Positions 53,581 to 59,307 of a stretch of 64,000 bases of DNA are shown piece by piece (the first letter of the stretch is position 1; every line of letters begins with the position of its first letter). The notes beneath the pieces are model-generated. The model worked only from the letters and a program-made list of their open reading frames with translations, was not told where the DNA came from and ran no database searches. The position numbers and the translations under genes were made by a program. The stretch comes from an uncultured delta proteobacterium (GTDB lineage: Bacteria > Myxococcota > UBA727 > VGSZ01), in assembly GCA_963775425.1 (NCBI GenBank), contig CAVZJB010000003.1, positions 512,001-576,000 of the forward strand, read 5' to 3'.

Positions 53581-54159
53581 ATGCGCGCGCTCACCCTCTT
53601 CGCCCTCGTCGCCTCCGCAGCGCCCGCCCTCGCCGGCGCCCCACCTGCCACGACCCCACCCGCGAAGACAGCGCCCGCAAAGACAGCGCCCGCGACGAGA
53701 GCGCCCGCGACGCGCGCGCCTGCGACGACCCCGCCCACGACCTCGCCGCCCGCGGGGAGCAAACGCGGCATCGCCGTCGTCGACGCCTGGGCCCGCGCCA
53801 CGCCCCCGGGCGCGAAGGTCGCCGCCGGCTACTTCACCGTCGAAAACGCCGGCGCCGCGTCGGATCGGCTCGTGTCCGCCTCGTCCCCCGCGGGCGAGGT
53901 GGCGCTGCACAAGATGTCGATGCAGGGCGGGGTGATGCGCATGGAGCCGGTCGCCGGCGGCATCGTCGTCCCGCCGGGCGGCAGCGTGACCCTCGCCCCC
54001 GGGGGCACCCACGCGATGTTCACCGGCATCAAGGCGCCGTTCACCGAGCACGCGCGCGTCCCGCTCACGCTCCACTTCGAAAAGGCGGGCGACGTCGACG
54101 TCGTCCTCGACGTGCTCTCCATCGGCGCCAAGGGCCCCGCGAAGGGAGGCGCGCGATGA
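53581..54159 (+). CDS. Copper chaperone PCu(A)C
   Basis: DAWARAT, LHKM...MRM, LAPGGTHAM. Confidence 0.9.
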   Translation: MRALTLFALVASAAPALAGAPPATTPPAKTAPAKTAPATRAPATRAPATTPPTTSPPAGSKRGIAVVDAWARATPPGAKVAAGYFTVENAGAASDRLVSASSPAGEVALHKMSMQGGVMRMEPVAGGIVVPPGGSVTLAPGGTHAMFTGIKAPFTEHARVPLTLHFEKAGDVDVVLDVLSIGAKGPAKGGAR

Positions 54160-54908
54160 ACGGACGCGCCCTCCTCACCGCCAGCCTCACGGTGCTCGCC
54201 GTCGCCGCCGGCATCGTCGTCTTCCTCCGCAGCTCGCCCAGCGGCACGGGCGGGACCGGCGGCGCCACCGGCGCGGCCGGCGTCAGCGGCGTCAGCGGCG
54301 TCAGCGGCGGCGTCAGCGGCACCGCCGGGACCGCCGGCGTCGCGGGCGTCGCGGGGGTCGCCGGCGTGAGCGGCGCCGCCACCCCGGGCGCGCCGAAGGG
54401 GGCGGCCATCATCCGCGAGGGCGAGCTCGGCGGGCCCTTCACGCTCACCAACGCCAAGACCGGGGCGCCCTTCACCGACAAGGACCTTGTGGGCGAGCCG
54501 TCGCTCCTGTTCTTCGGCTACACGTCGTGCCCCGACGTCTGCCCCACCGCCCTCGTCGCCGCCGGCCGCTGGCTGAAGGCCCTCGGCAAGGACGGCGACA
54601 AGCTGCGCTTCATCTTCGTGAGCGTGGACCCCGAGCGCGACACAAAGGCGCGGCTGGCGCAGTACCTCGGGGCGTTCAATCCGCGCATCCAGGGCCTCAC
54701 GGGCACGCCTGCGCAGGTCGACAAGATCATCGCCGACTACAAGATCGTGGCGAAGAGGGTGCCGCAGGCGAACGGCGAGTACGCCGTCGAGCACACCGCC
54801 CTGGTCCACCTCATCGACGGCCACGGGCGCTTCGTCGGCACCGTCGACTTCGAGGACGAGGACGCCGCCGTCGTCGCAAAGCTGCGAGGCCTTCTGGCCA
54901 CGAGCTGA
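54156..54908 (+). CDS. SCO1/SenC family protein
   Basis: FGYTSCPDVCP, SVDPERD, VEHTA; long Gly/Ala/Val/Ser linker. Confidence 0.92.
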   Translation: MNGRALLTASLTVLAVAAGIVVFLRSSPSGTGGTGGATGAAGVSGVSGVSGGVSGTAGTAGVAGVAGVAGVSGAATPGAPKGAAIIREGELGGPFTLTNAKTGAPFTDKDLVGEPSLLFFGYTSCPDVCPTALVAAGRWLKALGKDGDKLRFIFVSVDPERDTKARLAQYLGAFNPRIQGLTGTPAQVDKIIADYKIVAKRVPQANGEYAVEHTALVHLIDGHGRFVGTVDFEDEDAAVVAKLRGLLATS

Positions 54909-54929: not shown

Positions 54930-57188
54930 ATGCCCATCGATGTCATCCTCCCCGACGGAAACAAGAAGTCGCTGGCCGACGGTTCGAACGCCATGGACCT
55001 CGCCACGGCCATCAGCCCGGGCCTCGCCAAGGCCGTCGTGGTCGCGCGCGTCGACGGCGTCGTCCAGGATCTGCGCATCCCGCTGAAGGACGGACAGAAG
55101 GTCCAGCTCCTGAAGGCCGACACGCCCGAGGGCCTCGACACCCTGCGGCACTCCGCCGAGCACGTGATGGCCACCGCGGTGTGCCGCCTGTTCCCCAAGG
55201 CCAAGGTCACCATGGGGCCGCACGCGCACGCGGACGAGTTCTACTACGACTTCGACGTCGACAAGCCCTTCACGCCCGAGGACATCGCGGCCATCGAAGC
55301 CGAGATGCAGAAGATCATCGCCGCCGGCACCGAGTTCACCATGCAGGTGGTGTCCAAGGACGAGGCGTTCTCCATCTTCGACAAGGCGGGGCAGAACAAC
55401 GAGTACAAGCGCGAGATCCTCGGCTGGATCCCCGACGGCGAGCGCATCACGCTCTACTCCGACGCCGGCTTCGTCGACCTCTGCCGCGGGCCGCACCTGC
55501 CGCACGCCGGCTTCATCAAGGGCGTGAAGCTGACGACGCTGTCGTCGGCGTACTGGCGCGCCAACGCCGCCAACAAGTCGCTGCAGCGCGTGGGCGGCAT
55601 CGCGTTCCCCAAGAAGGACGACCTCGAGCGCTACCTGAAGAACCTCGAGGAGGCCAAGAAGCGCGACCACCGCCGGCTCGGCAAGGAGCTCGACCTCTTC
55701 ATCGTCTCCGAGCGCGGTGACGACCACAACTACGCCGAGGCCGACCCCGTCGAGGTCTACCTCGGCATCGCCGCCGCGCCGGGCACCGACACCAAGCTCG
55801 CCGACTTCGCCATGGACGTCGTGAGCCGCACCCTCGGCCCCGACCGCGCCATCCGCAAGACCATGGAGTTCTCGCCGGCGCCCGAGCCGGGCAAGGCCCA
55901 CGTCGACGCACGCATCCGCGGCCGCGTCACGCCGGCGCAGCGCGAGGCCATCACCGCGGTGCGCGTCGCGGAGAGCCCCGTCTCGCATACGCACGTCACG
56001 TCGGACATCACCTTCGAGCCCAACTTCAGCGAGGAGGTGGGGCCGGGCCTCGTCCTGTGGCTGCCCAAGGGCGGCAAGCTGCGCACCATCATCGAAGAGC
56101 AGTGGCGCAAGATGCACTTCGCCGGCGGCTACGACATCGTCTACTCGCCGCACATCGCCAAGACCGACCTGTGGAAGGTCTCGGGGCACTGGGGCTTCTA
56201 CCGGGAGTCGATGTTCTCGCCCATGTCCGTCGACGGGCACGACTACGTCTGCAAGCCGATGAACTGTCCGTTCCACATCATGATGGTGAAGTCGCGGGCG
56301 CGCTCCTACCGCGAATTCCCGCTGCGCTACGCCGAGCTCGGCACCGTGTACCGCTACGAGATGCCGGGCGTGCTGCACGGCCTCATGCGCGTGCGCGGCT
56401 TCACGCAGGACGACGCGCACCTCTTTTGCCGCTGGGATCAGGTCGACGCCGAGATCGATCGCGTCATCGGCTTCATCCTCAACGTGCTGCGTACGTTCGG
56501 CTTCAGCGACTTCGAGGTGAACCTGTCCACCCGCCCCGAGAAGTTCGTGGGCAAGGTGGAGGACTGGGATCGCGCGGAGAAGTCGCTCGAGGCGGCCATC
56601 AAGCGCCACGGGCTGCCCTTCCAGGTGGACGAGGGCGGCGGCGCCTTCTACGGCCCCAAGATCGACGTGAAGCTCACGGACTGCCTCGACCGCAAGTGGC
56701 AGTGCAGCACGCTCCAGCTCGACTTCAACAACCCCGAGCGCTTCGAGCTCGAGTTCGTGAACGCCAAGGGAGAAAAGGAGCAGCCGGTGATGTTGCACCG
56801 CGCGCTGCTCGGCTCCGTCGAGCGCTTCATCGGCATCCTCGTCGAGCACTACGCGGGGGCGTTCCCCGCGTGGCTCGCGCCCGAGCAGGTGCGCGTGCTG
56901 ACCGTGAGCGACAAGCACAACGACCACGCCCACAAGGTGGTGGACGCGCTGTCCGCCGCCGGGGTGCGGGTGACGTTCGGGGAGTCGAGCGAGAAGGTCG
57001 GCGCCAAGGTGCGAGACGCGCTGTGGGTCGAGAAGCTCCCCGCCGTGGTGGTCGTCGGAGACAAGGACGTCGAGGCCGGCGGCGGCACCTTGACGTTCCG
57101 CGAGACCCCCAAGGAGCAGAAGGCCATGTCCATCGACGCCCTGGTGAGCACGCTGACGGCGCACTGCGCCGTCCCCGAGGTGCGCTAA
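54930..57188 (+). CDS. thrS: Threonyl-tRNA synthetase with internal insertion
   Basis: TGS domain, LRHSAEH, DLCRGPH, KRDHRRLG, KPMNCP, RVRGFTQDDAH, AFYGPK, HRALLGS. Confidence 0.97.
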   Translation: MPIDVILPDGNKKSLADGSNAMDLATAISPGLAKAVVVARVDGVVQDLRIPLKDGQKVQLLKADTPEGLDTLRHSAEHVMATAVCRLFPKAKVTMGPHAHADEFYYDFDVDKPFTPEDIAAIEAEMQKIIAAGTEFTMQVVSKDEAFSIFDKAGQNNEYKREILGWIPDGERITLYSDAGFVDLCRGPHLPHAGFIKGVKLTTLSSAYWRANAANKSLQRVGGIAFPKKDDLERYLKNLEEAKKRDHRRLGKELDLFIVSERGDDHNYAEADPVEVYLGIAAAPGTDTKLADFAMDVVSRTLGPDRAIRKTMEFSPAPEPGKAHVDARIRGRVTPAQREAITAVRVAESPVSHTHVTSDITFEPNFSEEVGPGLVLWLPKGGKLRTIIEEQWRKMHFAGGYDIVYSPHIAKTDLWKVSGHWGFYRESMFSPMSVDGHDYVCKPMNCPFHIMMVKSRARSYREFPLRYAELGTVYRYEMPGVLHGLMRVRGFTQDDAHLFCRWDQVDAEIDRVIGFILNVLRTFGFSDFEVNLSTRPEKFVGKVEDWDRAEKSLEAAIKRHGLPFQVDEGGGAFYGPKIDVKLTDCLDRKWQCSTLQLDFNNPERFELEFVNAKGEKEQPVMLHRALLGSVERFIGILVEHYAGAFPAWLAPEQVRVLTVSDKHNDHAHKVVDALSAAGVRVTFGESSEKVGAKVRDALWVEKLPAVVVVGDKDVEAGGGTLTFRETPKEQKAMSIDALVSTLTAHCAVPEVR

Positions 57189-57302: not shown

Positions 57303-57926
57303 ATGATGCGCCTCACACCACTCCTCCTCGTTGCCGTTGCGTTCGGGTCCACACCTGTGCTCGCCGGGCCGGAGCTGACCCGCGCGTACATCCTCTCGAT
57401 CGTCAAGGACAACAAGCCCGACATCGAAGCCTGCGGCCGCTCGCTGCACGACGAGGTGGTGAAGACCCACTTCGTCATCGACACCCAGGGCAGCGTCGAG
57501 CACGTGAAGGTCGCCGGCAAGCATCGCCGGGACGCCGTCGGCACCTGCCTGCGCCGCCAGCTCAGCGCGATGCGCTTCGGTCCTTCGCTGACGGCCACGC
57601 CCGTGACCTTCCCGTTCCGCCTCGGCGACAAGAAGGCGCGCCAGGCCGAGCGCCTCCTGCGCAGCGAGAAGGGCGGCAAGCGCCTCGACGCAAACGAGGT
57701 GCACGACCTCTTGAAGCTCCTGCAGACCAACATGAGCTCGTGCGGCAGCGGCACCGTCGACACCCACTTCGACATCCTGCCGAGCGGCCTCGTGCGCAAC
57801 ATCGAGATGAGCGGCGACCACGCCGACGACAAGGTCGGAAAGTGCGTCCGCACCAAGCTCGTCCGCGCCCGCTTCCCCCACGCCAAGGCCGCCACGCCCG
57901 TCACGCACGCGTTCCAGCTCGACTGA
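57303..57926 (+). CDS. Secreted protein with tandem AgmX/PglI C-terminal (TonB-C-like) domains
   Basis: Signal peptide; two repeats of C..G...F.I...G.V...VG.C...F. Confidence 0.65.
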   Translation: MMRLTPLLLVAVAFGSTPVLAGPELTRAYILSIVKDNKPDIEACGRSLHDEVVKTHFVIDTQGSVEHVKVAGKHRRDAVGTCLRRQLSAMRFGPSLTATPVTFPFRLGDKKARQAERLLRSEKGGKRLDANEVHDLLKLLQTNMSSCGSGTVDTHFDILPSGLVRNIEMSGDHADDKVGKCVRTKLVRARFPHAKAATPVTHAFQLD

Positions 57927-57953
57927 CGTGGCCGAAGCGCGCAGCATCGAGGC

Positions 57954-58367
57954 ATGCGGCTCGTCTGCATGGCCGACACGCACATGTTCCACGGGGATTG
58001 GAGCGCCGTCCCCGCCGGCGACGTCCTCGTCCACGCCGGCGACATGACCCGCGGCGGGACGCGGGAGGAGCTCGTCTGTGTGCGGGACTTCCTCGCGGCC
58101 CTGCCGCACCCGCACAAGGTCCTCGTCACGCACGGGCCGCCCCACGGGATCCTCGACGACGCCGGCGGTTATCGCGGGACCGGCGGTTCGAGCCCCGCCG
58201 GCTGCGAGGCGCTGCGCGATCGCGTCCGCGAGCTCCGGCCGCGGCTGCACGTCTTCGGACACATCCACACGAACCAGGGCGTCGTCGACGACGACGGCGT
58301 CCGCTATGTCAACTGTACGACCGACGAGTGCGAGCGGGCGCCGCTCGTCGTGGACCTCCCGGGGTGA
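57954..58367 (+). pseudogene. Metallophosphoesterase with in-frame internal deletion (GNH motif missing)
   Basis: ADTH, HAGD, THGPP and FGHIH are present, but LPHPHKVLV runs straight into THGPP without GNHD. Confidence 0.6.
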
Positions 58368-58488
58368 CGGCGGGGCCCGCACGACGGGAGCGCCTCGCGC
58401 GGCTGTTCGTGAGCAACGGCCAACAAAGACAGTTCCCCGTTGCGTCCGCGGGGTAACGTTGGCATCTCGTCCGCAATTGGAGGATCCC

Positions 58489-59307
<819 letters not shown>

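Follow-up and report, generated by a model that had tools for sequence, protein, structure and literature searches.

The window analysed here, a stretch of 64,000 nucleotides from contig CAVZJB010000003.1 of an uncultured delta proteobacterium (Myxococcota), carries thrS, the gene for threonyl-tRNA synthetase (ThrRS), and this gene is interrupted in frame by about 105 residues that the solved bacterial enzymes do not have. The product of thrS is, as judged from its sequence, a full member of the bacterial-type class IIa ThrRS, for which threonylation and editing activity are predicted. Its four Pfam matches (TGS, tRNA_SAD, the class II core PF00587 at residues 436-641 with E 2.1e-43, and HGTP) are all above the curated cut-offs, and the best matches found with phmmer in the Protein Data Bank (PDB) are full-length bacterial ThrRS (1nyq, E 3.7e-161; 6vu9, E 1.3e-159; 1qf6, E 7.8e-155). 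The translation contains HSAEH and CRGPH in the N2 domain, which we take to be the editing motifs of ThrRS, and the conserved C446, H497 and H623, presumably the zinc ligands. In a search of the own genome (8.26 Mb in 18 contigs, 94.6% complete) this was the sole ThrRS, and one weak class II paralogue with 28% identity was the only other match. Since no other ThrRS was found in the genome and infC lies downstream, thrS is a housekeeping gene rather than a paralogue for resistance or auxiliary use.

The preliminary description of this DNA, made from the sequence, had reported about 105 extra residues in ThrRS at 55701..56027 (codons 258-366), and comparison with the solved structures bears this out, with flanks as it described them. 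The PDB alignment falls into two stretches, query residues 3-260 matching 4-256 of Staphylococcus aureus ThrRS (1nyq) and query residues 367-717 matching 256-611, and the alignment to 6vu9 breaks alike (query 3-261 and 368-744), leaving about 106 query residues opposite zero residues in the solved enzymes; the insert is missing from all 29 of the 29 matched PDB sequences. The insert proper comprises residues 262-366 (nucleotides 55713-56027, about 105 residues) with GKELDLF before it and SEEVGPGLVLWLPKG after it. The insert follows the linker helix, the segment with which the first stretch aligned to solved ThrRS ends, and precedes the strand with which the class II core begins. In the full-length model the motif 1 helix (residues 379-398) comes after the SEEVGPGLVLWLPKG strand, and the insertion precedes it by about 12 residues. 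The parts of the insert and of its host gene are given in Table 1.

Table 1. Features of thrS and of its insert, with nucleotide positions in the window.
Feature	Position	Strand	Basis
thrS, threonyl-tRNA synthetase (752 residues + stop)	54930..57188	+	Open reading frame list, translation, PDB phmmer, Pfam
TGS domain, residues 3-62	54936..55115	+	Pfam PF02824, E 5.1e-14
N2/editing (second additional) domain, residues ~63-226	55116..55607	+	PF07973 at residues 174-221; alignment to the S. aureus/E. coli N-terminal module
Linker helices from editing module to catalytic core, residues 229-253	55614..55688	+	DSSP on the full-length AlphaFold2 model: H229-244, H247-253
Insert N-terminal arm, residues 262-273, R-[YF]-D-x-H-x-Y motif (RGDDHNY in the window)	55713..55748	+	Column conservation, alignments, model strand at residues 265-267
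Insert body, residues 274-363	55749..56018	+	AlphaFold2, structural matches, hydrophobic core pattern in 22 non-redundant inserts
Insert C-terminal arm, residues 364-366 (PNF in the window; most relatives have P-H-Y)	56019..56027	+	Conservation of columns 363-366; model strand at residues 365-367
Class II catalytic core, residues 367-641, SEEVGPGLVLWLPKG strand first	56028..56852	+	PF00587, aligned stretch, secondary structure
Anticodon-binding domain, residues 653-743	56886..57158	+	Pfam PF03129, E 1.1e-13

The insert is a real, translated domain, and it is neither an assembly error nor a part of the enzyme core. A misassembly is ruled out because more than 20 assemblies of relatives, each independent, have the insert in this position too. 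The preliminary description had allowed for a misassembly or an already described ThrRS insertion, and neither came true in these assemblies and in the literature searches. It had also held that the insert is no intein, and we agree: no Hint-family match was found at E <= 1, the fold is alpha/beta with 105 residues, and the 23 insert copies begin with Arg or Lys and end with Phe, Tyr, Ile or Ala. A translated mobile repeat or transposon remnant was likewise rejected, as no direct or inverted repeats bounding the insert and no second copy in the own genome were found, and the third-position GC content (GC3) is 0.97 in the insert and in the rest of the gene alike. Thus the host-like codon usage noticed at the outset is also seen in GC3, and in 23 of 23 genes the GC3 of the insert is within 0.10 of that of the rest of the gene, over a range from 0.12 to 0.97. 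Pfam gave no family at E <= 1 for positions 55689-56036.

The preliminary description had suggested looking for the insert in related genomes, and it is present at the same site, with a length of 103-124 residues, in 24 ThrRS genes: 19 aligned open reading frames (ORFs), those of 4 further species and that of genome G070. The insert-bearing genomes are uncultured Myxococcota assembled from metagenomes. Searching 40 relatives with the whole protein returned at least one match in each, the sole match of G004 being no ThrRS but a weak paralogue of class II, and a MAFFT alignment of 29 ThrRS ORFs from related genomes contained 19 with the insert (103-124 residues) and 10 without it. From a pattern scan anchored on LF-VSE, with one genome per GTDB species, 14 loci were confirmed out of 204 pattern matches, and these were 10 genes already found and 4 new species (L038-L041). 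A sample of the phylum, 401 genomes, was searched with residues 200-450 at E <= 1e-15. Matches were obtained in 105 of the genomes, and in 21 a single match ran through the insert: nine genomes of the own family (f1, window included), two each of families f2 and f3, seven of family f6, and G070, which is the sole insert-bearing genome outside the order in this sample and was confirmed separately. The 296 genomes without a match hold nothing close at this strict threshold, which says nothing on the absence of ThrRS. In the other ThrRS examined in the phylum sample the insert was not present. Within the own order (41 genomes including that of the window, G000), the insert occurs in 9 of 11 genomes of f1, both genomes of f2, both of f3 and 7 of 21 of f6, and in neither the single f4 nor the single f5 genome; in the two exceptions in f1, G001 and G004, the assembly is without a thrS at this place. 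ThrRS identity among the insert-bearing genes falls to 37%, and the very AT-rich genome of 0.6 Mb that encodes L029 retains an insert of 109 residues with the same hydrophobic pattern. The insert could be used as a clade marker for this uncultured group.

The history of the insert was read from a maximum-likelihood tree of 51 ThrRS from which the insert columns had been removed (quick IQ-TREE search, LG+G4). All 24 insert-bearing rows fall inside one clade of 36 rows, with a support of 99 in the Shimodaira-Hasegawa-like approximate likelihood-ratio test, and the remaining 12 rows of the clade, which lack the insert, are nested in it at no fewer than four places and all belong to the small-genome family f6 (0.3-3.4 Mb). 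The fewest changes of insert state on the tree are five, which we read as one gain and four losses. When the 12 insert-less rows are forced into one clade the likelihood falls by 158 log units, and this arrangement is rejected (approximately unbiased (AU) test, p 2.5e-43). The loss forms show the canonical junction length, for example LFSVSD-PLIGPG. As far as these sequences tell, the insert was gained once, in an ancestor of an order-level uncultured Myxococcota group, and was cleanly excised at least four times in the small-genome sister family. The repeated clean natural losses with ThrRS kept show, at the level of the genes, that the insert is dispensable for ThrRS function in nature and thus for aminoacylation. 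Comparison of profiles links the insert groups f1 and f3 with a probability of 95.6%, f1 and f2/g22 with 93.6%, and f2/g22 and L046 with 96.1%.

At the insert site, a stub of 15 residues was seen in two ThrRS of family f15, L054 and L056 (genomes G055 and G046), which are the sister of the 36-row clade; it reads SERGDVHRQDDGSILHEE and SEKGDLYHDEAEERSYFEE, respectively. The stub begins with SERGDxH, the first motif of the insert arm, and it may be either a precursor hairpin or a deletion scar. Seven of the insert-less f6 ThrRS (L021, L022, L024-L027 and L031; genomes of 0.5-2.0 Mb) are also without the TGS domain, their ORFs being 559-584 residues long and the match beginning at about query residue 70.

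No sequence relatives of the insert outside these ThrRS were found in Pfam, the PDB, the own genome or a library of 1.84 billion representative proteins (one per 50% cluster). A profile of 19 inserts had two matches in this library, the ThrRS of G011 (P0002) and P0003, and because each 50% cluster has one representative, the single ThrRS match is no measure of the number of insert-bearing enzymes. P0003, a Spiralin-repeat protein of 1373 residues (E 2.8e-7), was rejected as a repeat artefact, as it also matches 14-15 unrelated Pfam families and gave a probability of 1.6% in hhalign. The repeats of P0003 are about 77 residues long and their sub-threshold matches add up; repeat proteins inflate whole-sequence E-values in this way. 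Of the 296 candidates of a word-indexed search with the insert alone, none but the query itself was a match; nothing better than a regulator at E 0.18 came from the PDB profile search, and the ESM Atlas search had no usable match. Pfam scans of the 23 inserts at E <= 10 contained no tautomerase family and no ACT. An internal duplication of the two beta-alpha-beta halves was rejected as well (hhalign probability 2%).

The preliminary description had taken the insert for a lineage-specific folded domain in an essential enzyme, and this view stands, given the one thrS in the genome, a confident fold prediction and the conservation at the same site in the clade of relatives. In the full-length AlphaFold2 model, built with 33 aligned ThrRS, the mean predicted local distance difference test score (pLDDT) is 82.0, with about 82-87 over residues 271-340 and a dip to about 62-74 over residues 341-360; the insert alone, modelled with 23 sequences, has a mean pLDDT of 84.5 and a predicted template modelling score of 0.74. 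The predicted elements are strand b1 (274-281), helix a1 (286-302), strands b2 (308-315) and b3 (322-330), helix a2 (335-342) and strand b4 (355-363). Short strands at residues 265-267 and 365-367 of the full-length model suggest a two-strand stalk. Foldseek against the PDB found no match at E <= 0.001, and its best rows, at E 2.3e-3 and up, were proteins of the tautomerase superfamily and designed cages. A search with VIA-align covered 48,161 representative chains, of which 28 reached Z >= 5 and none Z >= 8. The top 26 rows are made up of members of the tautomerase superfamily (MIF, fused 4-OT, CHMI, MSAD, cis-CaaD and relatives), a designed cage protein and two proteins whose function is not known (the DUF1904 protein 4m1a, and 1u9d), with Z 5.8-7.6, 83-101 of 105 residues aligned from target residue 1 and a root-mean-square deviation of 2.9-4.3 A. 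Ferredoxin-like and KH-type domains, with Z of only 4-4.8, rank under the tautomerase-type rows. The insert is thus predicted to be a compact domain of about 90 residues in beta-alpha-beta-beta-alpha-beta order, similar in topology, at the level of fold, to the tautomerase/MIF superfamily. A prediction of a two-copy complex of the isolated insert scored 0.01 (mark 0.42); it was made without controls and weighs neither way.

The insert evolves faster than its host gene and is still under constraint. In all 11 pairs of close relatives compared, the nonsynonymous divergence (dN) of the insert is above that of the remaining gene, by 1.05- to 4.7-fold, and in the 10 pairs with estimable synonymous divergence (dS), dN/dS is 0.045-0.88 for the insert, with four pairs at 0.05-0.2, and 0.036-0.33 for the rest of the gene. 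Across 22 non-redundant inserts, hydrophobic positions alternate in the four strands and the two helices, both arm motifs (R262-[YF]-D-x-H-x-Y and E363-P-H-[YF]) are conserved, and so are the charged positions E275, R306, D326, R328, R338 and E363. From the periodicity of the strands, E275, D326, R328 and E363 would lie on the face of the sheet that the helices leave uncovered. The best explanation is that purifying selection mainly keeps the hydrophobic core and a few charged residues of the open sheet face. No core columns were found to co-vary with whether the insert is present or absent, the only signals being gap or alignment artefacts.

Taken together, we consider it likely, with a probability of about 0.6, that the insert is an autonomous, peripheral accessory module that is carried on a short stalk of two strands and has a non-catalytic role in stabilising or docking through its polar sheet face. 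An accessory domain of about 90 residues that folds independently would have entered the loop that connects the linker helix to the first strand of the core, and it would be held there on two short conserved connector strands, R-Y-D-D-H-x-Y leading outward and E-P-H-Y leading back. The domain would project close to where the editing module is hinged to the core, outside the catalytic machinery, and threonylation would not need it. The conserved polar face of the sheet would offer a modest stabilising or docking surface, and a docking role is what we infer for it. Several points weigh against this reading. Repeated loss of the insert is equally expected of a functionless passenger, and the insert alignments contain no invariant column. 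The comparison of the window insert with its nearest relative (L003) gave the highest dN/dS, 0.88, which is near neutrality; dS in this pair is probably underestimated at GC3 0.97. The stalk geometry and the peripheral position are deduced from secondary structure and sequence only, and the likeness to the tautomerase/MIF superfamily, though it recurs through the top VIA-align rows (Z 5.5-7.6 over about 90 residues), is modest (Z < 8) and may reflect a common arrangement. The tree comes from a quick LG+G4 search, L029 is a long branch in it, and the rows grouped for the AU test were chosen once the tree was known. Moreover, the f2/g22 inserts are linked weakly to those of g13 and L029 (31-33%, E ~5e-4, in register), and the case that the inserts of g13 and L029 share their origin with the others is made in part from their site, their length and their pattern of secondary structure.

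The strongest competitor, although we regard it as unlikely, is that the insert is indeed a functionless passenger. A surface loop that tolerates additions would have received it a single time, and it would have stayed since clean removal is rare and an unfolded form would harm an essential enzyme; selection would keep it foldable, with no benefit to ThrRS. The four or more independent clean losses with ThrRS kept fit this well, as do the lack of any invariant residue, the higher dN of the insert in all pairs together with the near-neutral ratio in the lineage of the window, the lack of co-varying core positions and the lack of sequence relatives anywhere searched. However, the insert has been kept in 24 genes with ThrRS identity down to 37%, including genomes of 0.6-2.5 Mb under strong reductive pressure, and dN/dS is below 1 in 10 of 10 estimable pairs and low in four of them. 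Several charged and probably surface positions are also kept in more than 80% of 22 sequences, and upkeep of the fold alone needs none of these. A rather improbable, more far-reaching version of the docking idea is that an orphan domain, arisen de novo or from a captured and strongly diverged tautomerase-like gene, gives ThrRS a second, non-translational job, its polar sheet face docking another protein or a higher-order assembly, and that the genome-reduced lineages dropped this job.

Contact with tRNA seems improbable. The domain would in this case be placed beside the acceptor arm and tune how tRNA-Thr is bound or how its CCA end moves back and forth from the synthetic to the editing site. 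In the complex of Escherichia coli ThrRS with tRNA (PDB 1qf6) the acceptor arm is flanked by the editing module and the core, and the insertion directly after the linker helix that joins these two, together with four conserved basic positions (R262, R306, R328 and R338), is consistent with such a module. On the other hand, 22 of 23 insert copies have a net charge from -8 to +1, the exception being L029 with +10 in a protein that as a whole has +35, and relatives of the same order without the insert work without the domain. The net negative charge and the lack of invariant residues would speak somewhat against the binding of RNA or of a ligand, which the preliminary description had named, beside scaffolding, as possible roles. 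An unusual tRNA-Thr substrate is ruled out, since all three tRNA-Thr genes, on contigs 5 and 16, are canonical (76 nucleotides, with G1-C72 and C2-G71 read from the sequences), and thus no unusual substrate calls for an extra contact. Two more tRNA-Thr(ggt) predicted by aragorn on contigs 7 and 8 (81 nucleotides at 326780-326860 and 91 nucleotides at 235881-235971) are without a canonical acceptor end and look like false positives in GC-rich coding sequence.

It is very improbable that the insert couples ThrRS activity to a metabolite, be it as a sensor of small molecules, as a residual tautomerase/MIF-type enzyme or as a regulatory domain like ACT. Ligand-binding domains of the ACT type also have their elements in the order beta-alpha-beta-beta-alpha-beta, and two independent aligners agree on the likeness to the tautomerase fold. 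However, the free N-terminal proline that is catalytic in this superfamily is impossible in an internal domain, and a proline before the first strand occurs only in the window copy (P273) and is not conserved. MIF homology was rejected, as PF01187 (MIF) matches no ThrRS in the 41 genomes and hhalign against an alignment of 23 MIF members gave a probability of 0.5%. Moreover, ferredoxin-like domains score below the tautomerase-type ones, and no invariant residue is there to line a pocket. An extra oligomerisation module, with the two copies of the ThrRS dimer pairing or copies of different dimers joining as in tautomerase trimers, is hardly credible: the insertion is close ahead of the motif 1 helix, the dimer-interface element of class II enzymes, and the nearest folds are obligate trimers with a designed cage protein among the top matches, but the analyses run gave no positive evidence for it, the conserved open sheet face is polar or charged and not hydrophobic, and no core positions co-vary with the insert.

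The bacterial-type ThrRS of E. coli (1qf6) and S. aureus (1nyq/1nyr), as well as 6vu9, have the same collinear set of TGS, N2 editing, linker, class IIa core and anticodon-binding domains as the enzyme described here, but in them the first core strand comes after the linker helix with none of the ~105 residues in between. The tautomerase/MIF superfamily, which gave the best matches in both aligners, shares with the insert a size of about 105-125 residues and, as far as the predicted fold tells, a two-layer architecture of two beta-alpha-beta units. In contrast to that superfamily, the insert has no sequence similarity to it, is embedded in another protein with no possible free N-terminal Pro1, and has halves without detectable repeat similarity. 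The INS editing domain of ProRS is a comparable case, since there too a class IIa synthetase has received an entire folded domain, which sits between motifs 2 and 3 and which some lineages have lost. However, INS has a hydrolytic function and YbaK homologues, whereas the ThrRS insert is situated before motif 1, has no homologue found and no assigned activity. In the main-text catalogue of aminoacyl-tRNA synthetase (aaRS) insertion modules by Douglas et al. 2023 (PMC10810186), the ThrRS module is a helix-strand element of 35-42 residues involved in amino-acid activation and the class IIa module is a beta-hairpin of 6-18 residues. The present insert resembles the modules of this main text in being a contiguous element added to the catalytic region in part of a family, with gains and losses along the tree, and it differs from its ThrRS and class IIa modules in being an alpha/beta domain of about 105 residues at another site and in one clade. 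Full-text literature searches covering part of PMC found no description of such a ThrRS insertion. The kind of event is familiar, as lineage-specific insertion domains in aaRS are, and this ThrRS domain itself seems to be a new variant beside the catalogued modules named above.

Lineage-specific insertions are a main route by which aaRS obtain new contacts and moonlighting roles, and the insert in thrS is an unusually clean case, with one gain, several precise natural deletions, a confidently predicted small fold, no sequence relatives among the 1.84 billion representatives and a single-copy essential host gene. It provides a natural experiment on the tolerance of a class II enzyme to a whole domain next to its hinge and motif 1, and it may be a case in which an orphan domain arose within an essential gene. 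The insert alone reveals no new mechanism.

In the surroundings of thrS, two genes at 57303-58367 stand between thrS and infC and thus interrupt the usual adjacency of these; one encodes 207 residues that match TonB_C weakly (E 2e-5), the other a fragment-like calcineurin-type phosphoesterase of 137 residues (E 4.9e-5). The IF3 domains are found at residues 220-380 of an open frame of 409 residues (58078-59307), with a Pro-rich tail of about 29 residues after IF3_C. The approximately 200 residues rich in Pro, Arg and Ala upstream of the IF3 domains may be non-coding, in which case the true start would be downstream and atypical. Directly upstream of thrS, at 53581-54908, lies a copper-chaperone pair of the PCuAC and SCO1/SenC types, each with an N-terminal linker of low complexity: that of the first has PATTPPAKTAPAKTAP..., that of the second a Gly-rich run, GVSGVSG/GTAGTAGVAGVAG.

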